The notes beneath the pieces were generated by a model. The model did not search any database, was not told the origin of the DNA, and saw nothing but the letters and a program-made list of their open reading frames with translations. The position numbers and the translations under genes are program-made. From assembly GCA_945869735.1 (NCBI GenBank), contig CAMBPQ010000004.1, positions 5,219-69,218 of the forward strand: DNA of 64,000 nucleotides, given 5' to 3'. Within the stretch, counting starts at the first letter, position 1, and each line of letters begins with the position of its first letter. Origin of the DNA: Planctomicrobium piriforme. Lineage in GTDB: Bacteria; Planctomycetota; Planctomycetia; Pirellulales; UBA1268. Positions 3,602 to 58,225 of this stretch are shown piece by piece.

Positions 3602-3792
3602 TGAGAGCGCATTCGGCTGTGGTGGATCGCCGGCTCGGGGGCGGCAAAAGTCTCGTCGCTGAGGGCCGCGGCGGCCCGACGCTCCTTGAGCGTTCGCCGA
3701 CCCCATCGCCTACCTCGTCCAAGATGCCATCTCGCAAGATGCCATCTCGCAAGATGCCATCTCGCCGCTCCACCGAAAGCGGTTGCGCTCTA
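3602..3792 (+). repeat. R1 MITE-like element, copy A (carries internal 3 x 15-bp expansion)
   Basis: TGAGAGCGCATTCGG..GTGGATCGCCGGCTCGGGGGCGGCAAAAGTCTCGTCGC...GAGCGTTCGCCGACCCC...CTCGCCGCTCCACCGAAAGCGGTTGCGCTCTA. Homologous to copies B-H. The last 3 nt (CTA, 3790-3792) are the stop codon of the minus-strand DUF1573 gene. Confidence 0.85.
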
Positions 3793-4836
3793 GCGCGGCA
3801 GGCTCGCTGACTGCCCTGCCGCCGCCGCCAGCGGTTCGACCTCTGCCTGCACCGTCACCACCGGCACAGCACCCTCCCCGAGATCGGTCGATATCTTGAG
3901 TTGCTGTTCGACTCGCCCCGCGAGGTCCCCGGCCTGAAACGTCACTGGCAGGATGTGGACCTTGGCCGGCGTGGTCCGCGGCTCACACGTGAGGCAGCCA
4001 TTTTCGCAGTCCACGCCCGTGATGCAGAAATCGCGGTTCGCACGCACGACGACATTCTTGGTCACCGTGCCACCGCACTTCACCGAACCGAGCGAGAGAA
4101 GTTGCGGGCTAACGGTCACCGCCGCCACCACGCGGCCTTCGACGTCCATGGGGATCTGCGTGGCCCGCGGATCACTGGTGACGAGAATGAGTTGGCCCTT
4201 CATGTAACCGGCCGGAGAGTCGGCCTTCAGCCGCAGCGTCAGATCGTAGGCGGTCTGCGAAGACGACCGCGTCGGCTTCGAGAGACTCACCTCGAAGTTC
4301 GGGTTGGCGCTGCGGACGTCGGTGATGTCCCACGGGGCACTCCCCACGCGAGTCACGCGGACCGACCGCTCCGCCCCCGCCCCGAGATCAACGTTGCCGA
4401 GATCGACAAACGGCGGTTCGAACGTGACGTCACCGCGGATGTTGCCGGCCACCCGTAGCTGAACCTCCGCGTAGAACGGCTTGTCGAACGTCACCGTGAG
4501 CGTCGCGCCGTGCTGACCGAGGAACGTCCGCGTGTTGAACTTCGCGACGATCTCCGCAGTCTCGTGAGTCTTGAGGTCGCTTTTTGTGACCTCTGGCGAC
4601 GTGCAGCCGCAACTCGTCCGCACGCCGACCACATGGAGATCTTCCTTGTACGCGTTGCGGAAGACGAAGCGGTATTCGGTCTTTGAGCCCTTGGCGACGG
4701 TGCCGAAGTTGTGACTCGTCACCGAGAACATCTTCTTGGCCCACTCCTGGGCCAAGAGCGGCTCAGCACTCGTGAAGAACACGCATGCCGCGACGCACGA
4801 CAACGTGCGACCAAGACTGAACGGTGAGCGGAACAT
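3790..4836 (-). CDS. secreted DUF1573 domain-containing protein
   Basis: C-terminal two thirds of ORF 3790-5370. DUF1573 hallmark FGTVAKGSKTEYRFVFRN..LHVVGVRTSCGCT. Start chosen at ATG 4836 (MFRSPFSLGRTLSCVAACVFFTSAEPLLAQE, signal-peptide-like); ATG 4911 is an alternative. Everything upstream overlaps the tmRNA gene on the other strand. Confidence 0.8.
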   Translation of the reverse strand: MFRSPFSLGRTLSCVAACVFFTSAEPLLAQEWAKKMFSVTSHNFGTVAKGSKTEYRFVFRNAYKEDLHVVGVRTSCGCTSPEVTKSDLKTHETAEIVAKFNTRTFLGQHGATLTVTFDKPFYAEVQLRVAGNIRGDVTFEPPFVDLGNVDLGAGAERSVRVTRVGSAPWDITDVRSANPNFEVSLSKPTRSSSQTAYDLTLRLKADSPAGYMKGQLILVTSDPRATQIPMDVEGRVVAAVTVSPQLLSLGSVKCGGTVTKNVVVRANRDFCITGVDCENGCLTCEPRTTPAKVHILPVTFQAGDLAGRVEQQLKISTDLGEGAVPVVTVQAEVEPLAAAAGQSASLPR

Positions 4837-4897
4837 AGCAGTGCCCACGCAAGGGAAGACGGCGGCCGAAAAACCGGCCCGCTTCGCCTGGAAGAAG

Positions 4898-4925
4898 AGT
4901 ATGGGTGACATGGGATGAGCGTCAA
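4898..4925 (-). promoter_or_regulatory. candidate sigma70-like promoter for the DUF1573 gene (TTGACG-16 nt-CATACT)
   Basis: The minus strand reads TTGACG (4925-4920), a 16-nt spacer, then CATACT (4903-4898). It sits in the only AT-richer patch upstream of ATG 4836. Pattern match only. Confidence 0.25.
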
Positions 4926-5170
4926 CTTTTGAGGATGAGAAAAACTTAATATGGTAGGCCTTTTCGGAGCCCATCGGCGGCCTGCTACCCTCCCAGTATT
5001 GACCCGCCCGAGTGTCTACTCGCCGCGGAAACGCGTTTTTTCTGCGGAAATGAAGGTAGCCGGGCCTCACGACCGATACATTCCTTGAGGTTTCTGGGGT
5101 AGAATGGGGACGTCTGAAGTCCGCGGCGGCCGCGTGGCCGTCGGAACCCCGGACAGGACACAACCCAAAC

Positions 5171-5525
5171 GGGGGCGTACTGGTTTCGACCGGATGGCAA
5201 GAGGCTCGGATTGCGTGTCGTGGTTGGTCGGCTGGCCACGTTAAAAGTCGACCAAGCTTCAATTGCCGAAGCTCAGTTTTCTCTGGCTGCTTAACTAAGC
5301 AACCCCGAGCGATGGCCCCAGTCGGAAGGGCCTCCCAATCGGTCGCCAAATCCGACTCGCCCCGTTTCACCGCCTAGTACAGGCGGGGCTAAAAAAGTTC
5401 CGGGCTGGCCTGTGACGCACCCTGTCGGCCGGGGACGCACAGGCGAGACTCAAGTTGACCGGACACACACGTAGACGTTCGTGCTGAAACATCACGGGAC
5501 AGGGGTTCGACTCCCCTCGCCTCCA
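5171..5525 (+). ncRNA. ssrA: tmRNA (transfer-messenger RNA)
   Basis: 5' GGGGGCGUACUGGUUUCGACCGG matches the canonical tmRNA 5' end. The acceptor stem GGGGGCG pairs with CGCCUCC (5518-5524), including the G3:U wobble. T-arm GGGGUUCGACUCCCC, discriminator A5525; CCA is not encoded. The internal tag frame GAC CAA GCU UCA AUU GCC GAA GCU CAG UUU UCU CUG GCU GCU UAA (5250-5294) gives DQASIAEAQFSLAA*. Confidence 0.9.
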
Positions 5526-5620
5526 CTTCACGCCCGCCGGGCCCTCGTGGCCCCGGCGGGCTGGACCTGATGGGCTCGCCATCTAGGCGAGCGATCATGC
5601 GTTCTGCCGAGACGCCGTCT

Positions 5621-5845
5621 CCCGTCAGGAAGCCCCAATCGCGAGCGCGGGGAATGCGGGTGAACTGAAGACTGCGACGCATTGGTTCGCCGGCGGTGAC
5701 ATGCTCGCCGCCGGGGGATTTTGCTACGGGATGCCCGCGTGGCCGACCGAGCATTGCTCGTGAGTCGCAAAGATTCCCCGGCGTCTGCGCGTGCCTCCGA
5801 CCGACTCCTCACGATCGGGAGCGTGCGCCTCCCGTCAGGAAGCGC
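5621..5845 (+). repeat. R3 repeat, copy 1 (bounded by R2-type half modules)
   Basis: Aligns by eye over ~225 bp with 37632-37860. The 45-nt core ATTGGTTCGCCGGCGGTGACATGCTCGCCGCCGGGGGATTTTGCT is identical in both. Starts with CCCGTCAGGAAGCCCCAATCGCGAGCGCGGGGAATGC and ends with a degenerate second copy, CCCGTCAGGAAGCGCAATGCC. Confidence 0.8.
5689..5724 (+). terminator. terminator-like hairpin inside R3 copy 1
   Basis: GCCGGCGG-tgacatgctcg-CCGCCGG followed by GGGATTTTGC, ~165 nt downstream of the tmRNA 3' end on the same strand. Confidence 0.3.
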
Positions 5846-5912
5846 AATGCCGTGAGCCACCCGACTGCCGGCTGGGGCTGTCGTGCGTTCGAACTTCAGT
5901 GATTCAGCTCCA

Positions 5913-7061
5913 TCAAACCGGGCTCCACCCCACCATGGGCTGCGGATGGATGACCGGCTTGCCCACGACCGCAATCCGGTGCCGCTCCGCGTCGATCGCG
6001 GCCCCTGAAAAGTGCTCGATCGCGAGGTCGAAACGAATGCTCGCTCCCGACGCGAGTGGCACCACCCGGCTCTGTGCTTCCTCGAAGGACCGGGCATTCG
6101 GGTAGTTGGTGCCTGGCTCCAAGCCGGTGACGTAGCCGTCGGCCAGCCCTCCCTGATTCTTCCAGAGTGTGAAGCACGGGAGCGTGTCGGTCCGCCATGA
6201 AAGGCTCGCGGCATTGCGGCCGTCGGGCCCCACGAGCAGGGCGGATGCCTGGCCTGCGGCGTCGGCCCGCAGTCGCGCGAAATGGACCTGCTCGCCGCGG
6301 CCCCCCTGCGGTGTGACGTAGCGGTTCCACGTGGGCACGTCGCCCGCGGCGGCAGCGTCACGAGGGGCCAGTTCCTCCACCGCCGCCACGACCTCGGCCC
6401 CGGGCCCCAGGAGCGGCGGCCCAAAGTTGACGTGATAGAGCATCTGCATCGTGGTCGGACGATCGGAGAGATTCTTCACGCTGTCGGTCCAACTCACCCG
6501 ATGCCGATCCGCGTGGATCGTGAGCGACGTCGTCATCCGCAGCGACTGGACGAGGAACCGCGTCTCGTCGACCGCACCAGTGAGCGTGATGGTGCCAGCG
6601 GACTCGTCAAGCGTGACGTCAAGGTGGTGCGCGGGGAGGTTGGCAATCCGGCCGTGCAGGCCATGCCGCACGCGGCCCGAGGCGTCGACGTCGGGGGCCC
6701 CGTTGCTCACGAGGCCGCACCGAACCACGAGCTCGTCGAAGCCTTCAAGCCAGCCGAGCCCCGACGCCTCGGCAAGCGGCACGAACCGCGGATGCACGGG
6801 ACCGTGCACGGGCGACTGCCAGCCGAGCTCCACCCCGTCCGCCACGATCTTCCAGATACCGAGACCGCGATCGGGCAGGACGAAGACCTTCGTGTCGCCC
6901 GCCACGAGTTCCACAAGTAACACGCCCTCCCGCAGGCCACCCGAGAGCCGTCGCGTGCGGACGGCCAACCGGCCGAGCGAGAAGTCGACCCGGTCCGCAG
7001 CCGGAAACGACGCCGCGCGATGCGGGGTGATGAGTTGCAGGGTCTGCGACGCCACGGGCAT
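5913..7061 (-). CDS. aldose-1-epimerase-like protein (DUF4432 family)
   Basis: 382-aa ORF. VLPDRGLGIWKI..GWQSPV and ..GLHGRIANLPA.. resemble the DUF4432/aldose-epimerase fold family. Good GC3 bias. Confidence 0.8.
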   Translation of the reverse strand: MPVASQTLQLITPHRAASFPAADRVDFSLGRLAVRTRRLSGGLREGVLLVELVAGDTKVFVLPDRGLGIWKIVADGVELGWQSPVHGPVHPRFVPLAEASGLGWLEGFDELVVRCGLVSNGAPDVDASGRVRHGLHGRIANLPAHHLDVTLDESAGTITLTGAVDETRFLVQSLRMTTSLTIHADRHRVSWTDSVKNLSDRPTTMQMLYHVNFGPPLLGPGAEVVAAVEELAPRDAAAAGDVPTWNRYVTPQGGRGEQVHFARLRADAAGQASALLVGPDGRNAASLSWRTDTLPCFTLWKNQGGLADGYVTGLEPGTNYPNARSFEEAQSRVVPLASGASIRFDLAIEHFSGAAIDAERHRIAVVGKPVIHPQPMVGWSPV

Positions 7062-7259
7062 CTCCTCAGAAAGGAAGCGCAGCCCGGGAGGCTGTCGCGG
7101 ACGTCGCGATAAGCAACCCCATGGGCAGAACCCGGGTCAGGATACCGTCCGGCCCCCGAGCCATGCAGATGGCTTGAAGACACCCGTGCGCGCGGTCACA
7201 GTGATCCTTTCCGGGCCGCGGTTCGCCGCAGCCTCCCCGTCGCCTCTTGAGCGATCCCA

Positions 7260-8204: not shown

Positions 8205-8211
8205 ACACGCC

Positions 8212-8296
8212 CTCCCGCCAGGAAGCCCCAAGCGCGAGCGCGGGGAATACGCCCACCACCCCAATCACGCCCCGGGCTCGCGGATGCCCCTGAGAA
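8212..8296 (+). repeat. R2 hairpin element, degenerate copy
   Basis: CCCGCCAGGAAGCCCCAAGCGCGAGCGCGGGGAATACGCCCACCACCCCAATCACGCC.. matches the R2 copies at 41457-41538 and 37843-37962. The right arm is eroded. Confidence 0.6.
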
Positions 8297-8403
8297 GACC
8301 GCCCTCCCCATGGCGTTTGCGGCTGGAAACGACTTGGCTTGCGGAAGCGGCGGTAGATGGCACACTTACGGGCTTCGCACACCGACCCCACTAGGTTTTT
8401 CCC

Positions 8404-9039: not shown

Positions 9040-9086
9040 CTTGGCAGGGGGTGACTTGGCAGGGCGTGACGTGACCGCCGAGCGAG

Positions 9087-9677: not shown

Positions 9678-9743
9678 GCGCCCCACGGCGTTTGACGGAA
9701 TCTAGACTTCGAAACGAAACGCTTGAAGAGGAGCACGACGGTC

Positions 9744-13974: not shown

Positions 13975-13999
13975 GTACGGCACCTTCGGCTCCGGACTC

Positions 14000-14174
14000 G
14001 AGCGCATTCGACTTACGCGTGTCGCCAGCTCGGGGGCGGCAAAAGTCTCGTCGCCGGGGCGAGGATACGCCCAAGGCTCCTCGAGCGTTCGCCGACCCCC
14101 CTCGCCTACCTCCTCCAAGGTGCCATCTCGACGCTGCACCAAAGGAAGATGCGTTCGAAAGCGAGAGCGTTCTA
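14000..14174 (+). repeat. R1 MITE-like element, copy B
   Basis: GAGCGCATTCGACTTACGCGTGTCGCCAGCTCGGGGGCGGCAAAAGTCTCGTCGCCGGGGCGAGGATACGCCCAAGGCTCCTCGAGCGTTCGCCGACCCC...GAGAGCGTTCTA. The final CTA (14172-14174) is the stop codon of the upstream minus-strand gene. Confidence 0.85.
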
Positions 14175-15320
14175 GAAGTCATACCACATGCCGATGCCGG
14201 CACGATTTTGATTATAGAACGTGAACTCGTATTGCGGATCGGAACCATAGAGGTATTCGAACCCGATCCGGAAGAGCTTCTCGCTCCGCCGTCCCCGCCA
14301 TGCCCAGCCGGCCTGCGTACAGACGTTGCCGCCCCAGTCGAGTTCCTGACGCGACATGCCATTGATGGCCAGGAACGGCGCGCCGCGGGCGCCCGTCGGC
14401 CTGGCCTGAATGAGTTCCGTACCGAACTGAAACTCCCATGGCTGCGAACCGCCGGAGTTGAAGAAGGCCCAGCCGACCTCGCCGTAGAGGCGCATCCAAT
14501 CGAAGAGATAGTAGGAGTTGCCCCAGACGAGCACGTCGCGGACGTAATTCACCCGGGGGAAGTCGGGGTATTTGAGCATCACCTCGTCGCCGAGGTGCGC
14601 GCTGTTGTGGTAATAGGCGAGCTTCGTCTGCCATCGGCCCACGCCGTAGACGAGCGGCACGCCAAAGCGGTAGTCGGCAGACCGGAGATCGCGGTCATCC
14701 TGCGGATCGAGTCTTACGAACGCGGCGCCCTCGATCTGTACCTCGAACCCCTGAGGATGGAGGACGGTGTCGGATCCGTAGCGGAGAATCGATGCCCGGC
14801 CCCCGAGGGTCGTATCCCAGAGCCAGTCGTTACTGACCGACGGATCCAACGGATCGGGCGCGGAATCCTTGTACCAGACCGACCCGATCCGCGACTCCTT
14901 CGGTCCGGCCAGGTAGCTCGTGTAGATGAGGTTATTGGGAAGCAACTGCCACGACCACGGCCGTGCTGCCCAGAGGTCGTCGAAGCAATCTGGATAGGCC
15001 GCATGCGGAGGCGCACAGACGTCGGGGCAATACTCCCCCGGATCGTATTCGCCGTCGAGGAGCACCGGCCCCTGTGGTCTGGTGGGCGGCAGTTCATGGC
15101 TGGGCAGTAATTCGCTGGAACCGTAGAACCCGTCGGCGAGCTGTTCGGACTGGGGCAATGTCTCTACGGTGGCGGGCGAACTCTCCTGGGCCACCGCGGT
15201 GGCCCAGACCCCCATCGCGACGACGGCCATCGCCAGTCGCCGCACGCCATACAGCGGCGTACGACGCGAACGACGTTCGCGCGGCGGCGGCACCAACTTG
15301 AAAATAGGCGTGGTGGGCAT
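14172..15320 (-). CDS. putative outer-membrane beta-barrel protein (possibly DUF1207-like)
   Basis: C-terminal 382 aa of the fused ORF 14172-17312. Start at ATG 15320 (MPTTPIFKLVPPPRERRSRRTPLYGVRRLAMAVVAMGVWATAVAQE, signal peptide). Alternating aromatic/Gly-rich strands. Terminal ..GIGMWYDF with C-terminal Phe is typical of OM barrels. Confidence 0.7.
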   Translation of the reverse strand: MPTTPIFKLVPPPRERRSRRTPLYGVRRLAMAVVAMGVWATAVAQESSPATVETLPQSEQLADGFYGSSELLPSHELPPTRPQGPVLLDGEYDPGEYCPDVCAPPHAAYPDCFDDLWAARPWSWQLLPNNLIYTSYLAGPKESRIGSVWYKDSAPDPLDPSVSNDWLWDTTLGGRASILRYGSDTVLHPQGFEVQIEGAAFVRLDPQDDRDLRSADYRFGVPLVYGVGRWQTKLAYYHNSAHLGDEVMLKYPDFPRVNYVRDVLVWGNSYYLFDWMRLYGEVGWAFFNSGGSQPWEFQFGTELIQARPTGARGAPFLAINGMSRQELDWGGNVCTQAGWAWRGRRSEKLFRIGFEYLYGSDPQYEFTFYNQNRAGIGMWYDF

Positions 15321-20085: not shown

Positions 20086-21104
20086 CGGGAGACGATAGCG
20101 CGGGCCTTGGCCTCTTCACGGGTGCCCGACACGATCGCGCGGCCGTCGGCAAAGACCGACAGCTGGATTCCCTCCTCCACCTCGGCCCGCACGATCCACC
20201 GGTTCGCGACGACGCTCCCCACGGCCGCAAGCCGCGCGGCGATCGCGGCCAGATCGACCGCGCCGCCGGCTGACGGCACCTGCACGGCGTCACGGCCGCA
20301 CAGCGGCGTCGGCCGGGCACCGAGCCGGCCCTCGAGCCACGGGTAGTCTCCGCCCCGACATGTGGGGCAGCCAACAGTGGCAAGTGACGACACATCGACC
20401 GTCCGCCAGATATTTTCCCAGAGATCGCAGACGAGCAGCCGGTTGCCGGCCTTGTCGCCAGAGCCGACGACGAGCTTCATCGCCTCCGCCGCCTCGACGG
20501 CACCGACCACCAGCGCCGCTGGGCCGATGATCCCCGCGGTGTCGCAGGTCGCGAGTGACCCCGGCGCCGGCGGCTCCGGGATGAGGCACCTGAGGCAGGC
20601 GGTGCGGCCGGGTACGACCGTCATCACCCGGCCCTCGGCCCCAATCGCGCCGCCATGCACCCAAGGCACGCCGTGCCGGCAGGCGAACTCATTGACCAGA
20701 AACCGGGCCTCGAAGTTGTCGGTCCCATCGACGATCACGTCGATACCGCCGAGCAGTTCGGCCACGTTCATCGCCATCAGATCAGCGACGATCGGCTCGA
20801 TCGAAACCTGCGAGTTGATCCTGCCGAGTTGCCTGGCGGCGGCGACCGCCTTCGGCAGGCCGGCGGCGACGTCAGCCTCATCGAAGAGCACCTGCCGCGG
20901 GAGATTCGATATTTCTGGAACATCCCGATCAATGAGCCGCAGAAACCCGACGCCAGCACGGGCCAGCGTCATCGCGACGACACTGCCGAGCGCGCCGCAG
21001 CCGACGACCGCGATTCGTGCGGCCAAGAGCTTCGCCTGGCCGTCCGGGCCAAGCGATGCGAAGCGTGTCTGGCGGGAGTAGCGGTCTGCGTCGACGTCAG
21101 GCAT
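20070..21104 (-). CDS. ThiF/MoeB/HesA-family adenylyltransferase (E1-like)
   Basis: ..RYSRQTRF.., Rossmann loop VVGCGALGS, two CxxC pairs (CLRC, CPTC), and a C-terminal extension ending ..VFADGRAIVSGT..IVSRYLGA. Confidence 0.85.
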
Positions 21105-21159: not shown

Positions 21160-21280
21160 CGGTAACAGAGGAGGCAAGGGGGTCGGCGAACGCTCGAGAA
21201 GCCTCGGGCGTATCCTCCCCCCCGCGACGAGACTTTTGCCGCCCCCGAGCCGGCGAACCACCAGAGTCGAATCCGCTTTA
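21160..21280 (-). repeat. R1 MITE-like element, copy C (truncated at one end)
   Basis: GAGGAGGCAAGGGGGTCGGCGAACGCTCGAGAAGCCTCGGGCGTATCCTC..GACGAGACTTTTGCCGCCCCCGAGCCGGCGAACCACCAGAGTCGAATCCGCTTTA. The terminal TTA (21278-21280) is the TAA stop of the adjacent minus-strand gene. Confidence 0.8.
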
Positions 21281-22252
21281 GGATATTTGGCGAAGCGCGC
21301 CCACGAGATATCCGGCCCAGTCCCACGGCAGGTGGTCGACGCCCGCGGCCAGTCCCCAGGCGGCAAGGTCGCCCTGCAAGACATCGCATGCCGAGCGTCC
21401 TGTTGCCGGATCGCAGCCATCATGCCGCCATGCGACGAGCGGCACGGCACAAGCCGACCGCCAGGCTTCGTGAGGCACGCAGCCCGCGGCGAGCGTAACG
21501 GCGATGAAGTCGAGTGGCGTCTTCACCATGGGAGGCGGCTGGCTGCCGTCGACTGCCTGGCCGATCAGCATGGTTCCCTTTGTGCGCCGCAGTGTGGCAA
21601 GCCGCCCAGCGATGACCTCCGACGGAACGTCCGCGGCGACCAGCGCGAGCATCGCGGCGGGATGGCGGGCAAGCGCAGCGACCTTGGCGGTCATCAGGTC
21701 GGCGGCTCCGAGCAGTGGTATGAGGGCCACGCCCATCTCGTCGGCGCTCGCGAGGTCTTCTTCCAAGACGTTCACGAGCACAGCCCCAAGCGACGCGGCT
21801 TTGACCGCAGGGAGGTCGGGGCGACCGGCAGCGACCACGGCCCGCGGCGCCCACCGCCGCCCGTCGAGCCACAACGACCGACCGCGGACACCGAGACGCC
21901 GCAAGCCAATGAGGGTGTCGGTACGGCCCGCCGCCGAATCGCTCGGACCGGTGCTCGGACTGTCGACAGTGGCCTCGAGACGGTAGAGATTCGGCAGTTC
22001 GGGCGTCCAATACGCCGGTTCGGTGAGGATCGCCCGCGAGACCGGACCGACATCGGCACCGCCCGGCAGCGGCACGAGCCGGGACGTCGTGGGGAGCGTC
22101 GTGTCGCGTCCGCGCCGGGGACCGATGATCGTGCCGGTGATGCGAGCCGCCGACGTTCCCGATCCCACGAGCCGCACGAAGGCCTCGGCCCGCATGTCGT
22201 CACAGGGACCGAGTAAGACGCTGATCTCCGGAAAGATGGCCGTGGCGGTCAC
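21278..22252 (-). CDS. hypothetical protein with glycoside-hydrolase-family-2-like remnant
   Basis: 324 aa, GTG start. ..EPAYWTPELPNLYRLEATV..IGLRRLGVRGRSLWLDGRRW.. resembles the GH2 sugar-binding/Ig-to-barrel junction, but the remainder is too short for a full catalytic barrel. Its start overlaps the upstream stop (GTGA, 22249-22252). Confidence 0.65.
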   Translation of the reverse strand: MTATAIFPEISVLLGPCDDMRAEAFVRLVGSGTSAARITGTIIGPRRGRDTTLPTTSRLVPLPGGADVGPVSRAILTEPAYWTPELPNLYRLEATVDSPSTGPSDSAAGRTDTLIGLRRLGVRGRSLWLDGRRWAPRAVVAAGRPDLPAVKAASLGAVLVNVLEEDLASADEMGVALIPLLGAADLMTAKVAALARHPAAMLALVAADVPSEVIAGRLATLRRTKGTMLIGQAVDGSQPPPMVKTPLDFIAVTLAAGCVPHEAWRSACAVPLVAWRHDGCDPATGRSACDVLQGDLAAWGLAAGVDHLPWDWAGYLVGALRQIS

Positions 22253-26942: not shown

Positions 26943-28259
26943 ATGCCCGTGCAGCGTGTTCTCGCCCTGGTGCTCGGCGGTGGCCGCGGCACAAGGCTTT
27001 ATCCGCTCACCCGCGATCGCTCGAAGCCGGCGGTGCCGCTGGCTGGAAAATACCGCATCATCGACGTGCCGCTGTCGAACTGCATCAACAGCGGTGTGCA
27101 ACGGATCTACGTGCTCACGCAGTTCAACTCCGTGAGCCTCCACCGCCACATCCGTCGCACCTATACGTTCGACCCGTTCAGTGGCGGCTTCGTCGAGATC
27201 CTCGCAGCCCAGCAGACGCTCGATAACTCGGGTTGGTACCAGGGCACCGCCGACGCCGTGCGGCAGAACATTCGGTATCTCCAGCAGCCGGACATCAAAC
27301 ATGTGCTCATTCTCTCGGGCGACCAGCTCTACCGGATGAATTACGCCGACATGCTGGCGACTCACGTCGCTCACAACGCTGACGTCACGATCGCCGGCAT
27401 CCCTGTGCTGGACGAGGCCGCCTCGGGGCTCGGCCTGATGCGACTCAACAGCGTCGGCCGCGTGGAAGGTTTTCTTGAAAAGCCGCAAACGGCTGCCGAA
27501 CTCGACATGATGCGCACCGACCCGGCATGGATCGACAACCAGGGAATCCCCGCGAAGGGGCGGTCGCTCATGGCAAGCATGGGCATCTATCTCTTCAACC
27601 GCGACTGCCTGATCGACCTGCTGACCAAGACCGACTATCAGGACTTCGGCCGCGAGGTATTTCCCACCGCCATCCGGGCGAAGCATGTGCAACTCCATCC
27701 GTTCGACGGTTACTGGGAGGACATTGGTACGATCCGGTCCTACTTCCAGTGCAACCTCGATCTGGCTGGGATTGCACCCCCCTTCGACCTGGTGAACGCC
27801 GAGGCGCCGATCTATTCCCGGGGCCGGTTTCTGCCGCCGACCAGGATCGCCGGCGCGAGTATCCGCAACAGCCTCGTATCCGATGGGTGCGTTGTCGAAT
27901 CGGGGACCGTGATCGAGAACAGCGTGATCGGCCTGCGGTGCCGGATCGGCAGAAACGTCATCATCCGTGACTCCGTGATCCTTGGAAACGACTTCTACGA
28001 GACCGATGGCGTCCTCGCCGACGCGGCCGTCCGGGGCCTGCCACCACTCGGCATCGGTGACGATACGATCATCGCCGGTGCGATCATCGACAAGAACGTC
28101 CGCATCGGCAAGCGGGTGAGGATCGCCAACGAACACGGCTGGCAGAACACGGCCGACAGCGACCAATTCATGATCCGCGATGGCGTGGCCGTGGTTCCGA
28201 AGGACGGGCTTGTCCCGGACGGCTGGATTCCCGAGCCCGGCTCCGTGAAGCCCGGTTAG
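26943..28259 (+). CDS. glgC: glucose-1-phosphate adenylyltransferase (paralog 1)
   Basis: LVLGGGRGTRLYPLTRDRSKPAVPLAGKYRIIDVPLSNCINSG. AAGGAG Shine-Dalgarno sequence 7 nt upstream. The TAG stop (28257-28259) is the first 3 nt of R1 copy D. Confidence 0.95.
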   Translation: MPVQRVLALVLGGGRGTRLYPLTRDRSKPAVPLAGKYRIIDVPLSNCINSGVQRIYVLTQFNSVSLHRHIRRTYTFDPFSGGFVEILAAQQTLDNSGWYQGTADAVRQNIRYLQQPDIKHVLILSGDQLYRMNYADMLATHVAHNADVTIAGIPVLDEAASGLGLMRLNSVGRVEGFLEKPQTAAELDMMRTDPAWIDNQGIPAKGRSLMASMGIYLFNRDCLIDLLTKTDYQDFGREVFPTAIRAKHVQLHPFDGYWEDIGTIRSYFQCNLDLAGIAPPFDLVNAEAPIYSRGRFLPPTRIAGASIRNSLVSDGCVVESGTVIENSVIGLRCRIGRNVIIRDSVILGNDFYETDGVLADAAVRGLPPLGIGDDTIIAGAIIDKNVRIGKRVRIANEHGWQNTADSDQFMIRDGVAVVPKDGLVPDGWIPEPGSVKPG

Positions 28260-28416
28260 AGGGCATCCGACTTACGTGGATCGACGACTCGGGGTCGGCA
28301 AAAGTCCCGTCGCCGGGGCGAGGATACGCCCAAGGCTCCTCGAGCGTTCGCCGACCCCCTCGCCGACCCCTTCCAGAGTGCCCTCTCGGCGCTCCACCAA
28401 CGGCAGAGCCGCGCTA
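28257..28416 (+). repeat. R1 MITE-like element, copy D (fills the convergent intergenic gap stop-to-stop)
   Basis: TAGAGGGCATCCGACTTACGTGGATCGACGACTCGGGGTCGGCAAAAGTCCCGTCGCCGGGGCGAGGATACGCCCAAGGCTCCTCGAGCGTTCGCCGACCCC..GCGCTCCACCAACGGCAGAGCCGCGCTA. The first TAG is the glgC stop. The last CTA is the stop of minus-strand gene 28414-29055. Confidence 0.9.
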
Positions 28417-29055
28417 GCGAAGTTGGCGGGTCCGCCAGCCGGGCGTTTCCGCCAGCGAGGGGATTGCAGCCGGCTGCTGCGGATTGGCCTCAAGGGGCGC
28501 TTCCTCAACCTGGTCGGTAGGCGCGGCCGAGGCGGCGACCTCCTCCTCGACGTCGAGCGAGACGTCGTCAACTTCTGTGAGAACGATGCTCGACCCGTTA
28601 GCCGCCAGCGGGGCGGTAGCGACATCGTCGTCGTTTGTCTCCTCGCCGCGAACCATCAGGATGCTGACCGGTTCCCCCGCTCCGACGGCCTGATCGACGG
28701 CCTCATCGGCGGGCAGTGGATCGGCGAGCGTCGGCTCTCCGGTGCGGCGGGAAACCCGCTTCGCGACGGGCCCCAAATCACTCTTGGTGGTAGCCCGCTC
28801 GACGAGCGGTGGCCACGGGCACGGCACCGCATTCAGCGGCAGGATTCCGCCGCTTCGCGCACGAAACTCGTTTTGCGGCGCCGAACCGTTCGGCACTGCC
28901 CCGGAGTAGTCGTACGGATCGGGGCACATCGTGCATCCCGACAGCACCGCGACCACCGCCACGGCGGCGACGCGACCACTCACCGTCCCGGCGAAGCGGC
29001 CCAAGCGGTCCATACGATTCCGACGTCCTTCCCCGGAACGGGCCGGCCGGGTCAC
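28414..29055 (-). CDS. hypothetical lipoprotein with acidic C-terminal half
   Basis: Lipobox ..AAVAVVAVLSGC|TMC. ATG 29013 (MDRLGRFAG..) is an alternative start. No recognisable domain. Confidence 0.6.
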   Translation of the reverse strand: MTRPARSGEGRRNRMDRLGRFAGTVSGRVAAVAVVAVLSGCTMCPDPYDYSGAVPNGSAPQNEFRARSGGILPLNAVPCPWPPLVERATTKSDLGPVAKRVSRRTGEPTLADPLPADEAVDQAVGAGEPVSILMVRGEETNDDDVATAPLAANGSSIVLTEVDDVSLDVEEEVAASAAPTDQVEEAPLEANPQQPAAIPSLAETPGWRTRQLR

Positions 29056-29182
29056 CCCGGCCCACGCCCACCCTCGATCCGCGGCTGCTCACCACACCCC
29101 AGCGGCTGCTCCCCACCCCCACCACCCATACCAGTCATCGGATCGGCACGACCCGTTTCTTCAGCAAATCGCAGACGTCTCG

Positions 29183-29364
29183 TGAGAGCGCATCTGCCTT
29201 TGGTGGAGCGGCGAGATGGCACCTTGGAGGAGGGAGGCAAGGCGGTCGGCGAACGCTCGAGGAGCCATGGGCGGATCCTCGCCCCGGCGACAATCCGCAG
29301 GACCGCGCAGCGGCGACTTTTGCCGCCCCCGAACCGGCGATCCACAGAAGTCGAATGCACTCTA
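29183..29364 (-). repeat. R1 MITE-like element, copy E (with ~20-nt internal insertion)
   Basis: TGAGAGCGCATCTGCCTTTGGTGGAGCGGCGAGATGGCACCTTGGAGGAGGGAGGCAAGGCGGTCGGCGAACGCTCGAGGAGCC...GACTTTTGCCGCCCCCGAACCGGCGATCCACAGAAGTCGAATGCACTCTA. Confidence 0.85.
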
Positions 29365-29409
29365 CCGGTCGTCTCAGGAAGCCCAGCGGCGTGAACCGTG
29401 GGGACCGGA

Positions 29410-31850: not shown

Positions 31851-32010
31851 TAGAGCGCGTCCGCCTTTGGTGGAGCGGCGAGATGGCACATGGGAGAAGG
31901 GAGGCGAGGGGGTCGGCGAACGCTCGAGGAGCCTTGGGCGTATCCTCGCCCCGGTGACGAGACTTTTGCCGCCCCCGAAGCCGGCGATCCACGCACGTCG
32001 AATGCGCTCT
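31851..32010 (-). repeat. R1 MITE-like element, copy F
   Basis: TAGAGCGCGTCCGCCTTTGGTGGAGCGGCGAGATGGCACATGGGAGAAGGGAGGCGAGGGGGTCGGCGAACGCTCGAGGAGCCTTGGGCGTATCCTCGCCCCGGTGACGAGACTTTTGCCGCCCCCGAAGCCGGCGATCCACGCACGTCGAATGCGCTCT. Confidence 0.9.
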
Positions 32011-32047
32011 CACCGCGTCGGCGGGAGGGCCGACCTGCGACGCGGCA

Positions 32048-37579: not shown

Positions 37580-37631
37580 TACGGCCCCACGTGACTGACG
37601 CCGCTGTGCTTCTTGGGGCCACACCCCCGCC

Positions 37632-37860
37632 AGGCAGCCCCAAGCGCGAGCGCGGGGAATGCAGGTCGTATCGAGACGGTGCCGGATTGGTTCGCCGGCG
37701 GTGACATGCTCGCCGCCGGGGGATTTTGCTCCAGGATGCTCGCTTGGCCGACTGGGCATCGCTCGTGAGTCGCAAACATTCCCCGACGTCTGCGCGTGCC
37801 TCCGACCGGCTCCTCACGATCAGAAGCCGGTGCCTCTCGCCAGGCAAACCCAATCGCATT
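37632..37860 (+). repeat. R3 repeat, copy 2
   Basis: Aligns with 5621-5845. Same orientation and same position relative to an upstream plus-strand gene end. Confidence 0.8.
37702..37737 (+). terminator. terminator-like hairpin inside R3 copy 2
   Basis: GCCGGCGG-tgacatgctcg-CCGCCGG then GGGATTTTGC, ~120 nt downstream of the response-regulator stop. Confidence 0.3.
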
Positions 37861-38027
37861 CGCGGGGAATGCGCGTGCCATCCCAATCCGCTCCCCGCCA
37901 GCATCACGGTCGTCACCCGCCTTCCCATCGCTTGCGCTCCGGGCTTCTTGAGGGCACGCTCATGCCGTGGAGCGACGTGACTTTTGCCGCCCTCGAGCCG
38001 GCGATCCACCAAAGCAGTACGCGCTCC
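37843..38027. repeat. R2 element (with insertion) fused to a deletion derivative of R1
   Basis: TCGCCAGGCAAACCCAATCGCATTCGCGGGGAATGC...CCCATCGCTTGCGCTCCGGGCTTCTTGAGGGC (R2), then ..GACTTTTGCCGCCCTCGAGCCGGCGATCCACCAAAGCAGTACGCGCTC. In the latter, the R1 left-TIR and right-TIR sequences are joined directly. Confidence 0.7.
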
Positions 38028-38140
38028 AGGCTGCCCCGTTTACCCCGATGACCGGGCCATGACGTGGTCTTGACCCGTCGCGGCGGACGCGGGTATTTCT
38101 CCCGGCTCACGGCTCGTTTCCCGCACAGGATTCTGTACCC

Positions 38141-41012: not shown

Positions 41013-41426
41013 ATGATGCGATTCAGCATGATCGCCGGAGCCGTGCTGGGAGCCGTGTCCGTGGCCGGAGGCGCCTTCGGGGCCCACGGGCTGAAGGACA
41101 CGCTCGATGCGACCGGCCAGGCTGCCAACTGGGAAACGGCCGCTCGCTACTGCATGTATCACGCGCTGGCCCTCCTCGCACTCGGCCAGCTCGCCGGTCG
41201 GCGACCAGTGGCCTCGTGGCCGTTCACGGCAGCTGCATGGTGTTTCCTGGGGGGCACGCTGATCTTCAGCGGCTGCCTGGCGGCCCTCGCACTCTCCGGC
41301 GTGAAAATCCTGGGCGCTATCGTGCCGATCGGCGGCGTGCTCTTGATCGCCGGCTGGCTGCTCATGGCCCTCGCGGCGGCGGCCGAACGCGAGAGTCCGC
41401 CGCACCCACGAAGCGAGCGGCTTTAG
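41013..41426 (+). CDS. DUF423 (YgdD/TMEM256-family) small membrane protein
   Basis: ..AGAVLGAVSVAGGAFGAHGLK....A.RYCMYHALALLALG.. is typical of DUF423. Starts 4 nt after the secretin stop. Its TAG stop is the first 3 nt of repeat copy G. Confidence 0.85.
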   Translation: MMRFSMIAGAVLGAVSVAGGAFGAHGLKDTLDATGQAANWETAARYCMYHALALLALGQLAGRRPVASWPFTAAAWCFLGGTLIFSGCLAALALSGVKILGAIVPIGGVLLIAGWLLMALAAAAERESPPHPRSERL

Positions 41427-41676
41427 AGCCCATTCGAGCTACGTGGATCGCCGGCTCCCGTCAGGAAGCCCCAAGCACGAGCGCGGGGAATACGGCCCGC
41501 CACCCCATCCCATCGCTTGCGTCCGGGCTTCCTGAGGGCCGCGGCGAGATGGCTCCTTGGAGGAGGGAGGCAAGGGGGTCGGCGAACGCTCGAGGAGCCT
41601 GGGGCGTATTCTCGCCCCGGCGACGAGACTTTTTCCGCCCCCGAGCCGGCGATCCACGTAAGCCGAGTGCGATCTA
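41424..41676. repeat. Composite element G: R1 left terminus + nested R2 + inverted R1 body, stop-to-stop between convergent genes
   Basis: 41424-41456 is TAGAGCCCATTCGAGCTACGTGGATCGCCGGCT. 41457-41538 is R2 (CCCGTCAGGAAGCCC...GGGCTTCCTGAGGG). 41539-41676 is the R1 body in reverse orientation, ending GCCGGCGATCCACGTAAGCCGAGTGCGATCTA. The outer 16 nt TACGTGGATCGCCGGC are a perfect inverted repeat. Confidence 0.85.
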
Positions 41677-52504: not shown

Positions 52505-52514
52505 GTCGCCAGGA

Positions 52515-53486: not shown

Positions 53487-53578
53487 CAGTTGCTGAACCA
53501 CCACATCACCTCCGAATCCGACAGTTGTCCGCCCCACGGCCTCTGCCGTCGGCACGTCGAGTCAGTCTCTAACCACTG

Positions 53579-53610
53579 TTTATACAGCCGCATTGTGAGC
53601 CTTTTGTGAG
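53579..53610 (-). promoter_or_regulatory. Pho-box-like direct repeat plus -10 element upstream of pstS
   Basis: The minus strand reads CTCACAA-AAGG-CTCACAA (53610-53593), then 8 nt, then TATAAA (53584-53579). Two 7-bp direct repeats at 11-bp periodicity just upstream of a -10 box is the PhoB-promoter architecture. Confidence 0.45.
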
Positions 53611-53910
53611 TGGCCGCCAGACCCGGGGAAATCAGCGGTTCTTGAGGGTTTTTGAAAGTCGGCAACCACGACAAGCATCCCGTGTGGCTGCCCTACCGCT
53701 CACGCGGTGACGCTCCACTGATTCACAAAGCCCGAGGGCGTGAGCCATGAGGAACTTCCAGGAATGATGCAAGTCTCTCCTCAGAAAGCGTTTGCGTCTC
53801 GACCGATCGCTCAACAACGAGCATTCATCAGACGTTTTCGGAAGGCGTTTGGTAGACTTCTGATCTATGCTGGCCCCCAGAGGCCCGCCCCCCCCGCGCA
53901 TCACGCACCC

Positions 53911-54630: not shown

Positions 54631-54659
54631 CATCCTTGACCCCGGAGACTTGTTAACCC

Positions 54660-55301
54660 GTGCCCGACCATCTGATCGTGATTCGTTCAGGCGCCACCGA
54701 CTACGACCTCCAGGAGAGGATCCGCGGGACGCTCGCCATGCCGCTCACGGCGGCAGGCATCGCAGCAGCCATGCGTGCCGGCGAACAGCTGGCGGCCGAG
54801 CCACCCCAGGCGATCTACGCCTCGACAGACGAGTGCGCCGCGGAAACTGGGCGTCTCGTCGGCCTCGCCTGCGGCATCAAGCCGCGGCAGGTGGCGAACC
54901 TGGGCAACCTTGACCTGGGCCTCTGGCAGGGCAAGCTCGTCGAAGAGATCCGCGAAAAGCAGCCCCGCCTCTATCGACAGTGGCAAGACAAACCGTGGTC
55001 AGTCGCGCCGCCTGAAGGCGAACTTTTGGAACAGGCCTGCGAGCGTGTCGAGGCCGCGGTCGAAAAACTCTTCAAGCGTCATCCGTCGGGCCGCATCGCC
55101 CTGGTCGTGCCGCAGCCGCTCGACGCGATCGTTTGTTGGCTCGTGTCAGGCCGCTCGATGGGCGACCTCTGGACTTTCGACCCAGAGCCCGACCTCGTCG
55201 ACGAACTGCCCGTCGCCGCCCAGTGGCAGTCATCGCGGCCCGGCGTGCCGCTGCCACCGGCGGCCGGCACCGTCTCCTCACACCCGTTTGTTTCCCGCTG
55301 A
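54660..55301 (+). CDS. histidine-phosphatase (PGAM) superfamily protein, catalytic His positions substituted
   Basis: GTG start. [12 protein letters not shown] where the family has RHGxT. ..[13 protein letters not shown].. where the family has V(S/T)HG. The overall layout otherwise matches (..[10 protein letters not shown].., ..LDLGLWQG..). Confidence 0.7.
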
Positions 55302-55404
55302 AAGCGGCGCAGCACCGCCCCCAGCCAACGCGATAAACTCATGGACGTCGGCAGGGTGGCCCTGCCGCCGTTTTATCCCCGTTCGCCTTCCGCCGGTCTT
55401 GAGC

Positions 55405-56331
55405 ATGGAACGCCGCCGCCCGTCAGCGACCGCCTCCGACGTAGCCGTGAAGACGGCCGCGCCGCAGACCGCGGCCCCACGACAGCCAGCGGCTGCCGAA
55501 CCCGCGGCCGCGAATGGCCGGGGCCCGCGGCCGAAGCGTGGCGTGCCTGAGGGGCTATGGCAGAAATGCGACGGCTGTGGGGCCACGATCTACCGTAAAG
55601 AGGCCGAGGAGCTCCTCAACGTCTGCCCGCAATGCGGGTTTCACTGGTACGTCTCGGCGGCAAAGCGGATGGAGCAGCTGCTCGACGCGGGGACGTTCGA
55701 GGAGTGCGATGCCGACCTCAGGCCCACCGACCCGCTCGGATTTCGCGACAAGAAGCCGTATGCCGAGCGGATTGTGTCGGAACAGAAACGGACCGGTCTC
55801 CGCGACGCCGCCCTCACGGGCACGGGCATGATCCGCGCCCGCCGTGTGGCCTGCGGCGTGACCGACTCGTCGTTCATCATGGGCAGCATGGGGAGCGTGG
55901 TGGGCGAACGGCTCACGCGGCTCGTCGAGCGGGCGACCGCCGGCAGGCTGCCGCTGATCATCATCAGCGCGTCGGGCGGTGGCGCTCGGATGCACGAGGG
56001 CATCCTGTCACTGATGCAGATGGCGAAGGTGTCGGCTGCTTTGGCCCGCTACTCCCAGGCGGGCGGCCTTTTCATTTCGGTGCTCACCAACCCGACTATG
56101 GGCGGAGTGGCGGCGAGTTTCGCGTCGCTCGGTGACCTCTGTTTCGCGGAGCCGAGGGCCCTGATCGGGTTCGCGGGCCCACGAACAATCAAGGCGACGA
56201 TCCGGGTGGAGCTTCCGAAGGGATTCCAGACGAGTGAGTTTCTCCTCGAGCACGGTTTCATCGACCGGATCGTGCCACGGAAAGATCTCAAGAGCGAAAT
56301 CGCGAGGGCGATTGACTTCTGTGGTGGCTGA
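55405..56331 (+). CDS. accD: acetyl-CoA carboxylase carboxyltransferase subunit beta
   Basis: ORF 54775-56331 trimmed to ATG 55405 (MERRRPS..). Zn ribbon [26 protein letters not shown], then ..SMGSVVGE....GGARMHEG.. Confidence 0.9.
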
Positions 56332-56357
56332 CCACGCAGTCGATTGCATACCGGCCG

Positions 56358-56723
56358 TCAGGCCGGGGTCATCGCGTCGATCTTGGCGGCGAGGATGAAA
56401 TCGTTTTCCGACAGCCCGCCAATGGCGTGCGTGTGAATCTCGATCCACACTCGGCGGTAGCCCTCGAGGTGCAGGTCGGGATGATGCTGCTCCCGCTCGG
56501 CGAGCGCCGCGATGTTATTCATCATCTTGATCGCGGACCGGAAGTCAGGCAGCGTCCAGTCGCGGCGGATTCGTGTGTCGTCATGCGTCAGGTGCCAGCC
56601 GGCGAGTCCCGCCACCTGGGCTTCCGCTTCCGCAGCCGAATACCTCGCCACGCCCCCCTCACAGGGAACGCATTTCTTTGCAACGAGTTGGGCGGAGCCC
56701 TGCGGCGGATTGGGAGCGCTCAT
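56358..56723 (-). CDS. 4a-hydroxytetrahydrobiopterin dehydratase (pterin-4-alpha-carbinolamine dehydratase)
   Basis: 121 aa. ..F..A......IA.LAEREQHHPDLHLEGYRRVWIEIHTHAIGGLSENDFILAAKID is the PCD signature region. Confidence 0.9.
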   Translation of the reverse strand: MSAPNPPQGSAQLVAKKCVPCEGGVARYSAAEAEAQVAGLAGWHLTHDDTRIRRDWTLPDFRSAIKMMNNIAALAEREQHHPDLHLEGYRRVWIEIHTHAIGGLSENDFILAAKIDAMTPA

Positions 56724-56729
56724 GGAGAG

Positions 56730-57941
56730 TTAGTATCGCCCCTCGAAGCCCGCAAATCCACCGTGAACAATCGTGCTCGATCCGGCCTCGATTCCCGAGA
56801 GTGACGTCGGCGACGTGATCACGGTGGGCCACTGGCCATCCGCCTGGGCGATATTCCCTACTCCCACGACACGGTAGCCCAGCCACAGGCTCCAGTGGTC
56901 TGTGACATCCCAAGCCACCGCCGTGTCAACCGACCCCAGCCACGAGAAGACGCCGAGCGTCGAATGCACCGTCGACGGTGAACCGTCAGCGGTGAAGGTG
57001 CCGTATGTCCCGTTCGTCCGCACGAGCGAACTTGTGTTGGTGATCGAGTTGCCGCCGACCATGAACTTGGGCACGATGTTGAGGCGGACCATCGGTAGAA
57101 TCCGCCAGTCGAATTTGGCCCCGACCTGAGCGCCGTAAATATTGTTGTTTGTGGCCACGTCGAAGTCGAGTCCGCCGAGCGACGAATCACCCGTGCCGTT
57201 TTGGAGCGTCAGCGCGTCGCCCACCTCGAAGAATCGGAAGCCGGCCAGCCACATCAGGTTGATGGCCCGCTCACGGGGCAGGAACTCGGGCCGATCCCAG
57301 AGCGAATACACCCAGTTGATCTCGATGTCGTTGACGACGTCGGAGCGGTTGATCTGCTGGGCCGTGGCACCGGTCAGAAACATTGCTGCGGGCATCCCCG
57401 CCACCGTCACGCCCGGCGCCTGCGGAATCGCGTTGATCGCGCCGGCGCTCGACGTCACGCCACTCGACGTCCCGATGTTGTAGACGCCCCAGTAGATGAG
57501 TTCGACGGCGTGCTGCTGCCGCATCCCGAACCAGCGGCCCAGATGCAGATCGACGCCACCGGGCCAGTTGGCGCCAGCATCGGCCGTCGTGAGTTGCGTG
57601 CCGCCGACTGGCTGCATCGTGGCGGCACCCGATGGCAGCGTCCGGGTCATCACAAGCCCGCTAGCGCCGGCGAACCATCGCGGCCAGGATTTCGCGAGGC
57701 CCGAGCCGACGCCCACGGGCAGCGCCGTGAACGTGTCACCATCGAGTGGGTCGGCGACGTACATCGGCGGCGCGACCATGTCTGTGCTGCCATCGGTCGC
57801 CATCGCCGCCGGCTCGACGGTAAGGCCTGGCGGTTGCGGCCATGCCGCCGGCCCGATCACCGCGTACGCCCCTGCCACGGCCGCCCAGAGGACGGGACGA
57901 ACTGTCACGCCGCGCCGTTTCAGGGTCTCAGGCTGTCGCAT
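56730..57941 (-). CDS. putative outer-membrane beta-barrel protein (BBP7-like)
   Basis: 403 aa. Signal peptide ..VRPVLWAAVAGAYAVIGPAAW. Alternating beta-strand pattern rich in G/N/W/Y. Ends ..GGFAGFEGRY. Confidence 0.65.
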   Translation of the reverse strand: MRQPETLKRRGVTVRPVLWAAVAGAYAVIGPAAWPQPPGLTVEPAAMATDGSTDMVAPPMYVADPLDGDTFTALPVGVGSGLAKSWPRWFAGASGLVMTRTLPSGAATMQPVGGTQLTTADAGANWPGGVDLHLGRWFGMRQQHAVELIYWGVYNIGTSSGVTSSAGAINAIPQAPGVTVAGMPAAMFLTGATAQQINRSDVVNDIEINWVYSLWDRPEFLPRERAINLMWLAGFRFFEVGDALTLQNGTGDSSLGGLDFDVATNNNIYGAQVGAKFDWRILPMVRLNIVPKFMVGGNSITNTSSLVRTNGTYGTFTADGSPSTVHSTLGVFSWLGSVDTAVAWDVTDHWSLWLGYRVVGVGNIAQADGQWPTVITSPTSLSGIEAGSSTIVHGGFAGFEGRY

Positions 57942-58065
57942 GGCACCGCCAAAAGAGAACGAGCGTCTCCGTCCCGTGCGCCGGGGGCTCGGGGAGGCGG
58001 AGAGTCAGATAAAGGCGTCCGACCGTCAATCCCTGTTTCCCGCACACCGTCGAATGACAACCGAC

Positions 58066-58225
58066 GAGAGCGCATCCGCTTTTGGTGGAGCGGCGAGATG
58101 GAACCTTGGAGGAGGGAGGCAAGGGGGTCGGCGAACGCTCGAGGAGCCTCAGGCGTATCCTCGCCCTGGCCACGAGACTTTTGCCGCCCCCGAGCCGGCG
58201 TTCCACGCAAGTTGGATGCGCTCTA
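58066..58225 (-). repeat. R1 MITE-like element, copy H (in divergent promoter region)
   Basis: GAGAGCGCATCCGCTTTTGGTGGAGCGGCGAGATGGAACCTTGGAGGAGGGAGGCAAGGGGGTCGGCGAACGCTCGAGGAGCCTCAGGCGTATCCTCGCCCTGGCCACGAGACTTTTGCCGCCCCCGAGCCGGCGTTCCACGCAAGTTGGATGCGCTCTA. Confidence 0.9.

Follow-up and report, generated by a model that had tools for sequence, protein, structure and literature searches.

The 64,000-nucleotide stretch of Planctomicrobium piriforme DNA considered here (contig CAMBPQ010000004.1, positions 5,219 to 69,218; the window in what follows) carries one sequence of about 160 bp repeatedly between its genes. This raises the question of what kind of element the repeat, termed R1, is, and why its ends so often coincide with stop codons. 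R1 is most probably a non-autonomous DNA transposon, a bacterial miniature inverted-repeat transposable element (MITE) of about 160 bp that uses the dinucleotide TA as its target. The same idea was put forward in a first-pass annotation of this DNA, and it is supported by the structure of the ends, the absence of copies in relatives, the rarity of TA and the pattern of stop-codon usage. Among elements of this known kind, TA-flanked bacterial MITEs, R1 constitutes a new family. Bacterial MITEs are typically shorter than 200 bp, with terminal inverted repeats and a terminal TA (PMC2229807).

A 20-mer from the R1 core has eight matches in the window against 0.06 expected. It is exact in copies B and D on the plus strand and in C, F, G and H on the minus strand, with one mismatch in A and E. 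A second block also has eight matches (0 expected), including one in a fragment at 37979; copy F fails to match it for the sole reason of a 1-nt insertion. Aligned copies yield a consensus of about 160 nt, and a sensitive nhmmer profile search recovers eight elements and one fragment, with nothing further. The first-pass annotation thus had the family, its strand and mismatch pattern and the copy coordinates right (the latter to within a few bases of the nhmmer boundaries), while its count of about ten copies becomes eight elements plus the fragment. Counted from flanking dinucleotide to flanking dinucleotide, most copies measure 160–190 bp, with a G+C content of 66–70%, in a window of 63–70% G+C. 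All are intergenic, as first described. The density, about one copy per 7 kb, is similar to that of the Correia elements of Neisseria, roughly one per 7–8 kb. Orientations are mixed, three plus and five minus, with no strand bias, and the cumulative GC skew is monotonic, indicating a single replichore. The window is ordinary chromosome, with genes for ribosomal proteins, DnaB, succinate dehydrogenase, the Pst system, LeuRS, GlgC and a one-piece tmRNA.

The anatomy of the element was derived from 35 full copies with flanks and then from a 43-copy alignment. The imperfect terminal inverted repeats described at first pass are confirmed by arm pairing and covariation; they span about 27 bp and read GAGCGCAT...ATGCGCTC. 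Some copies have almost perfect terminal repeats, for example that at locus L097 (27 bp, duplex of -45 kcal/mol). Arms of the same copy pair more stably than arms taken from other copies (-22.0 versus -19.6 kcal/mol, p=0.024). A hand-drawn structure of 47 pairs has 82.8% of its cells paired, against about 40% when the partners are slid. Double-sided changes occur in 7 of the 13 pairs of the inner terminal-repeat helix (helix 2); overall they are many in the arms and few in the core hairpins. The arms enclose an asymmetric core, about 85 nt long and containing small hairpins (CGCCGGCTCGGGGGCGGCAAAAGTC...GCTCCTCGAGCGTTCGCCGACCCCCTCGCC), an apical hairpin that varies in sequence and retains its pairing, and, on the 3' side, a variable spacer of some 17 nt. 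Optional hairpin inserts recur in several species at two fixed positions: the first follows GGCAAAAGTC, as in window copy E, and at the second, close to the 3' arm, window copy G has a unit of another small repeat family, R2.

R1 has no coding capacity. Its open frame is broken by 1–2-nt indels between species, and a database search with the pseudo-peptide that it encodes returned only three tiny spurious proteins, so that the core is not a transposase fragment; a coding role was dropped. The pseudo-peptide itself occurs in eight open frames of the window, at least seven having been noted at first pass. Two N-termini are inflated by R1, again as first described. The longest open reading frame (ORF) of tsaD runs into copy B, and its TsaD domain begins only at residue 79 (Pfam). 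The longest ORF of the DEAD-box helicase extends 40 nt into copy F and has 564 aa, against 467 aa in the public call.

The boundaries of the element are sharp in other species, where a random flank gives way to C-TA-GAGCGCAT on the left and ATGCGCTC-TA-G/A gives way to random flank on the right. Among 68 non-redundant left ends from these species the profile is C 76%, T 88%, A 72% and G 85%, followed by AGCGCAT; right ends mirror it. Of 36 copies, 18 have TA on either side; TA accounts for about 1% of the dinucleotides in these genomes. The outermost flanking bases vary independently on the two sides (C-TA-G...C-TA-A, T-TA-G...C-TA-G), so that a 2-bp TA duplication within an NTAN target fits, and a 4-bp CTAG duplication does not. 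As a separate observation, decayed flanks have mostly changed from TA to GA or TC, by T-to-G transversions and not by transitions.

Seven copy ends in the window are TAG or TAA stop codons (3790, 14172, 21278, 28259, 28414, 41426 and 41674), although in copy B the stop (14172-74) sits in a duplicated terminus, 16 nt past the canonical element end. All seven had been listed in the first-pass annotation, and the genes concerned are supported by Pfam or public gene calls; the stop at 28414 is backed by a public gene call and by a conserved C-terminus in one relative. Copy D is exactly the 155 nt that separate two convergent stops. Copy F has no such coincidence at either end. The 39 gene ends of the window comprise 25 TGA, 10 TAG and 4 TAA stops, of which R1 abuts 6 TAG, 1 TAA and no TGA. 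The relation holds beyond the window. Of 121 ends that could be evaluated in other species, 29 (26 once three double counts are subtracted) coincide with the stop of a long ORF supported by third-codon-position G+C (GC3), against 2 of 121 for each of the frames shifted by 1 or 2 nt. Flanking genes are oriented towards R1 in 93 cases and away from it in 57 (p=0.004), and among flanking gene pairs (15 convergent, 26 tandem, 5 divergent) convergent ones are over-represented. The GC3-based gene finder behind these figures mis-called several window genes and was applied to other species only, in conservative end- and flank-specific versions.

The link to stop codons was first attributed to the survival of TA at stops in GC-rich DNA. 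This is supported by the exclusive abutment to TAG and TAA and by the depletion of the target: TA occurs 727 times in the window against 1826 expected (0.40x), and CTAG 25 times against 200 (0.13x), with 5 of the 25 CTAG sites being element ends. GATC and TCGA are about 3x over-represented in the window as a whole.

A mechanism consistent with these data would run as follows. (i) A DDE transposase acting in trans would cut R1 out and paste it into a TA, preferably C-TA-G or C-TA-A, duplicating the TA. This enzyme would most likely belong to the IS630/Tc1-mariner group, an IS5-family enzyme with a 2-bp duplication being the alternative. (ii) As the first base of the element is G and the last is C, each duplicated TA would be rebuilt as TAG read towards the element, on either strand. 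(iii) Insertion into the TA of a TAG or TAA stop would be silent for the protein, even where convergent genes share that TA. (iv) In a genome of 66–70% G+C, where TA is depleted and CTAG almost absent, tolerated targets would mostly be TAG and TAA stops and 3' intergenic DNA. (v) Copies would hence accumulate at gene ends. Silent insertion and scarcity of TA would together explain the accumulation, a scheme in which we infer the selection step. Copy D illustrates the point. Removal of the element and one TA would leave ggT-TA-Gcg, in which a single TA serves both convergent stops. Of these one would have been TAG and the other, on the opposite strand, TAA, and both would have become TAG on insertion. 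A shared TA may be reconstructed likewise for copy G.

Mobility is supported by the comparison of orthologous intergenic regions. The first-pass annotation had called for this comparison, holding that a lack of TA flanks together with conservation at orthologous positions would speak for a structured RNA or terminator; TA flanks were found, and R1 is not conserved at orthologous positions. Copy D is absent from all 18 GlgC relatives examined, and copy F from five syntenic relatives with aligned flanks, the syntenic relatives compared for the two copies having about 80% nucleotide identity. The closest relatives are all free of R1 at these sites. Five relatives have a recognisable convergent stop at the D site (L120, L121, L122, L126 and L131), and their stops lie 2–10 nt apart; in L120 the site reads TAA-CG-TCA and continues into conserved C-terminal coding sequence. 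A metagenome scan with GlgC gave 80 orthologous loci at 58–90% amino-acid identity. Only two of these have a clear R1 and two more a weak partial match, and not one of the 80 has R1 downstream of glgC. The reverse case is seen at leuS: its TAG stop is the left end of an R1 copy in L128, and the window has GGGA-TAG-CCGG, the TAG leading into unrelated spacer with no element. The window insertions are old, since they are fixed within the species and only 83–91% identical to one another; their flanks have often decayed. Copy C is fixed and nearly identical among co-specific strains.

Three loci show related arrangements upstream of glgC. Head-to-head dimers of two 3'-truncated R1 copies are present in two related metagenome contigs, at L128:7722-8010 and L142:675-977. 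They have cores about 95% identical and differ in whether the optional 22-nt hairpin insert is present at its usual place, a pattern suggestive of gene conversion or of repeated gain and loss of the insert. A third relative retains 37 nt of the R1 core immediately upstream of glgC (L147:9883-9919), in the spacer that in L128 and L142 holds the dimers; this remnant is possibly a decayed orthologous copy.

R1 is widespread outside the window. Species-representative genomes were scanned with an exact pattern of two invariant blocks, GGCAAAAGTC and GAGCGTTCGCCGA, separated by 30–60 nt. The scan gave more than 113 loci in at least 46 different assemblies. Among the matches listed, all but one are in metagenome-assembled genomes (MAGs) labelled Planctomycetota, Pirellulales or similar. 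The exception, a contig of 70% G+C in a Chitinophagaceae bin, is probably misbinned. Several R1-bearing MAG records are labelled 'Candidatus Kuenenia', yet their contigs have about 68% G+C and are syntenic with Pirellulales-type loci. Both sets look like mislabelled or misbinned records (L012, L024, L026, L029, L035, L043-L045, L047 and others; L072). The window together with loci L007-L199 contains 158 R1 matches at E<=1e-5. Thirty of 142 matches stand at locus ends, as expected where a repeat breaks assembly. At least 16 metagenome contigs in the European Nucleotide Archive (ENA) come from the same uncultured lake planctomycete, with identical gene order and R1 copies. R1 was not found in plasmid (BLAST) or viral-contig collections, and literature searches gave no description of the family.

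Several observations weigh against a TA-targeting MITE as the full account. C-TA-G is palindromic, so that the flanking TA could belong to the terminal repeat instead of being a target duplication. None of the 40 window ORFs scanned against Pfam encodes a transposase, as the first-pass annotation had noted, and neither the window nor some 2 Mb of related loci yielded an autonomous partner with R1 terminal repeats. The search for a partner covered inverted terminal-repeat pairs 0.4–6 kb apart, solo terminal repeats outside elements, plasmid BLAST and a viral-contig scan; it yielded MITE-sized pairs and chance matches only. All 16 co-specific strain contigs have identical copy sets, giving no evidence of current activity. 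Finally, the inside of R1 is more conserved than its ends. Between loci, core columns not used for ascertainment are 80% identical, a value that rises to 86% when the apical hairpin is left out; the arms stand at 60% and the spacer at 50%. Within the window, where copies were not selected by pattern, the figures are 91% for the core, 83% for the arms and 74% for the spacer. This is the reverse of what a typical MITE shows and hints at an additional function. As to the enzyme, an IS630/Tc1-mariner-like transposase acting in trans would be the best guess, with RUP and IS630-Spn1 as the precedent; the C-TA-G flank profile is consistent with this proposal of the first-pass annotation.

The conserved core may reflect an orientation-independent function, such as an RNA or DNA hairpin or a protein-binding site, or gene conversion among copies, or both. 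A tentative extension of the transposon account is that the core of about 85 nt is a functional module, held by purifying selection at each copy and spread by a TA-targeting MITE to hundreds of gene ends. Such a module could be a structured RNA active in either orientation, or a protein-binding DNA site. It is unlikely, on the other hand, that R1 is primarily a structured RNA or cis-acting 3'-untranslated-region element (a terminator, a stabilising hairpin or a small RNA), present in many copies for use by the host at many gene ends and placed at stops by function, not by insertion preference. The first-pass annotation had held a stop-proximal RNA structure to be equally open; as the primary identity of R1 it is not supported. 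Conservation of the core in at least 46 species, above that of the arms, is what an RNA would show, as are compensatory changes at the apical-hairpin pair 95/110 (GC to UA three times, CG once) and at pairs 99/106 (GC to CG three times) and 41/140 (GC to AU three times), the optional hairpin inserts at fixed positions in several species and the enrichment of copies at gene 3' ends. Yet the orientation of R1 relative to the upstream gene is random (48:45), copies are missing at orthologous sites in relatives, and copy H lies between divergent promoters. Mismatches show no asymmetry between G-U (72) and A-C (87; p=0.27, either strand), beside 252 other mismatches. Minimum free energies have z-scores of -0.9 and -1.4, folding being within 1–1.5 SD of shuffled sequences, and RNAalifold on diverse copies recovers invariant core helices only. 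No terminator- or promoter-like sites were found inside R1 copies (terminator scan of D, E and F), the longest T run being 4. Searches of Rfam 15 at the gathering score returned tmRNA only, with no match for R1; at E<=10 the only hit overlapping R1 was Mcr7, at 10.5 bits against a threshold of 380 bits. A directional RNA role is not supported.

Two other classes of transposition have been weighed, each with very little probability. R1 might be a hairpin element of HUH tyrosine transposases, REPIN/RAYT or IS200/IS605-derived, inserted beside CTAG with no duplication. The whole of R1 does fold as a long imperfect hairpin with compensatory changes, CTAG on both sides could equally be a left target tetranucleotide and a right cleavage site, and the L128 and L142 dimers are head to head. 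However, R1 is bounded by true inverted repeats of about 27 bp, where IS200/IS605 elements have asymmetric subterminal hairpins; variation in the bases just outside the two TAs is symmetrical (C/T on the left, G/A on the right), the pattern expected of a palindromic DDE target; and the three plus and five minus copies share one replichore, where single-strand inserters show a strong strand bias. R1 also has no GTAG/CGTC head as in REPs (PMC3733652).

Just as improbable is an IS5-family derivative that duplicates a full 4-bp CTAG or YTAA, the element proper then being AGCGCAT...ATGCGCT. CTAG is the commonest tetranucleotide at the ends (18 of 36 left, 21 of 36 right), and ends starting with GAG are typical of some IS5 subgroups in the ISfinder family table. 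Against this, 7 of the 18 copies with TA at both ends have a tetranucleotide other than CTAG on at least one side, and in six of the seven (L077, L081, L085, L040, L070 and window copy D) left and right differ; only L027 matches. A 2-bp TA duplication accounts for all seven. The model for a 4-bp duplication is MITEPsy1, which targets CTAG or YTAA and duplicates it (PMC3189936). Sites of the attC and dif/Xer kinds and ribozymes were dropped, as R1 has housekeeping flanks in both orientations, no AT-rich dif centre and no Rfam match.

Four known families place R1, taken as a TA-targeting MITE, among its kind. RUP of Streptococcus pneumoniae, like R1, is a small element of intergenic DNA (about 107 bp) that encodes no protein, bears terminal inverted repeats and inserts at TA; it is tied to IS630-Spn1 through TA targets, and its mobilisation in trans is ascribed to an IS630-family transposase (PMC2229807). 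The terminal repeats of RUP match a known insertion sequence in the same genome, and no such partner was found for R1. RUP is also AT-rich and confined to one species, in contrast to an element of 66–70% G+C in at least 46 species whose core is more conserved than its ends. The Correia (NEMIS) elements of Neisseria share with R1 a length of about 100–160 bp, TA termini, long and short forms that differ by an internal segment, a position near gene ends and a long hairpin when transcribed (PMC2229807). The Correia elements have well-conserved terminal repeats of 26 bp and an IHF site, and their promoter and RNase III effects are documented. Their sequence shows no similarity to that of R1.

ERIC (RU-1) of enterobacteria is, like R1, an imperfect palindrome (about 127 bp) conserved across genera, with extra sequence at fixed internal sites, TA ends and a location in transcribed intergenic DNA near stops (PMC2229807, PMC2759123). 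It belongs to another phylum and has no sequence similarity to R1, which adds the exact regeneration of TAG stops. MITEPsy1 of Pseudomonas syringae, of IS5-family origin, is a MITE of 100 nt with 18-nt terminal repeats and a CTAG/YTAA target (PMC3189936). It duplicates four bases and has a known parent, ISPsy2, where the flanks of R1 fit a 2-bp TA duplication.

The individual copies and the second repeat family are listed in table 1.

Table 1. Repeat copies in the window: positions, orientation, genomic setting and particular features.
Feature	Position	Strand	Setting	Ends and structure
R1 copy A	3603-3792	+	between citrate synthase stop (3575-77) and DUF1573 gene	C-TA at the right end (3790-92) gives the minus-strand DUF1573 gene (Pfam) its TAG stop; left flank GA in place of TA; 3' spacer (3720-3766) has three tandem repeats of the 15-nt unit CAAGATGCCATCTCG
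R1 copy B	13998-14174	+	between DUF1207 gene (-) stop and tsaD (-) start	canonical end 14156-58; terminal segment duplicated (GAGCGTTC-TA-G, 14163-75; duplication 16 nt, 14159-14175) and supplying CTA, the DUF1207 stop (14172-74; Pfam)
R1 copy C	21167-21280	-	324-aa gene 21278-22252 (-); ThiF start at 21104	3' third absent, model positions 3-119 only; 5'-end TA + A is the TAA stop (21280-78) of the 324-aa gene (public gene call)
R1 copy D	28257-28416	+	between GlgC stop and convergent 199-aa gene	GlgC stop TAG (28257-59; Pfam); CTA stop of the 199-aa gene (28414-16)
R1 copy E	29184-29366	-	43 nt downstream of UDG stop (29410-12), upstream of 199-aa gene	long form, 21-nt hairpin insert after GGCAAAAGTC; neither end is a stop codon
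R1 copy F	31851-32011	-	between SdhB-like gene stop (32048-50, 37 nt away) and DEAD-box helicase 5' region	
R1 copy G	41424-41676	-	between DUF423 gene and 286-aa TPR-like gene	253 bp; inverted ends 34 nt; body is model positions 4-142; nested R2 module 41458-41538 ahead of 3' terminal repeat; both ends are stops, DUF423 TAG 41424-26 and TPR-like gene CTA 41674-76 (public gene call)
R1 copy H	58066-58227	-	between divergent BBP7 porin-like gene (-; start at or before 57941) and Mur ligase gene (+; start 58296)	no stop codon involved; right flank TC in place of TA
R1 fragment	37971-38030	-	between GAF/response-regulator gene stop (37579) and secretin gene start (38141)	model positions 4-63, 5' terminal repeat and core start; end of a composite (~37625-38035) that also contains two R2 cores
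R2 copies	5634-5657, 8227-8250, 37639-37662, 41470-41493	+		diverged copy near 37849

Copies D (plus) and E (minus) form an inverted pair at 28257-29366, 1110 bp around a conserved 199-aa gene, with the look of a composite transposon. This was rejected: relatives possess the 199-aa gene with neither copy, and the arrangement looks coincidental.

R2, the second and smaller repeat family, has the core CCCAAGCGCGAGCGCGGGGAATGC, with four matches in the window against 0 expected. Besides its nesting in R1 copy G, the same insertion occurs in R1 copies of another MAG (L094, L028). Two R2 copies have a further 3' extension of about 40 nt in common, and one copy follows the TAG stop (8204) of the PRPP synthetase gene. 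The tmRNA gene (5171-5528) is of the standard one-piece form, with an Rfam score of 155 bits, and encodes the tag peptide AEAQFSLAA. It is overlapped by the DUF1573 gene in its longest ORF (3790-5370), for which an annotated start would therefore be placed too far upstream.

R1 has practical consequences for the genomics of these bacteria, as it inflates ORFs, gives rise to the same pseudo-peptide again and again and interrupts MAG assemblies. Gene calls and binning in a large group of uncultured freshwater Planctomycetota would gain from a model of the family. R1 is also a clean natural case of a transposon whose terminal bases regenerate stop codons and make stops safe landing sites, and stop-codon usage has shifted with it, six of the ten TAG stops in the window being associated with the element. 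Stop-codon regeneration follows from known TA/CTAG targeting, and the conserved core is the feature worth pursuing. An element conserved more strongly inside than at its ends, in at least 46 species, brings the puzzle of ERIC and Correia to a new phylum; for ERIC, too, cross-species conservation has long been debated. The copy numbers of R1 may suffice for a direct test of selection. If the core is indeed a module maintained at each copy, R1 would not be junk DNA; dozens of freshwater planctomycete species would share it as a 3'-end cassette, mobile and yet domesticated.

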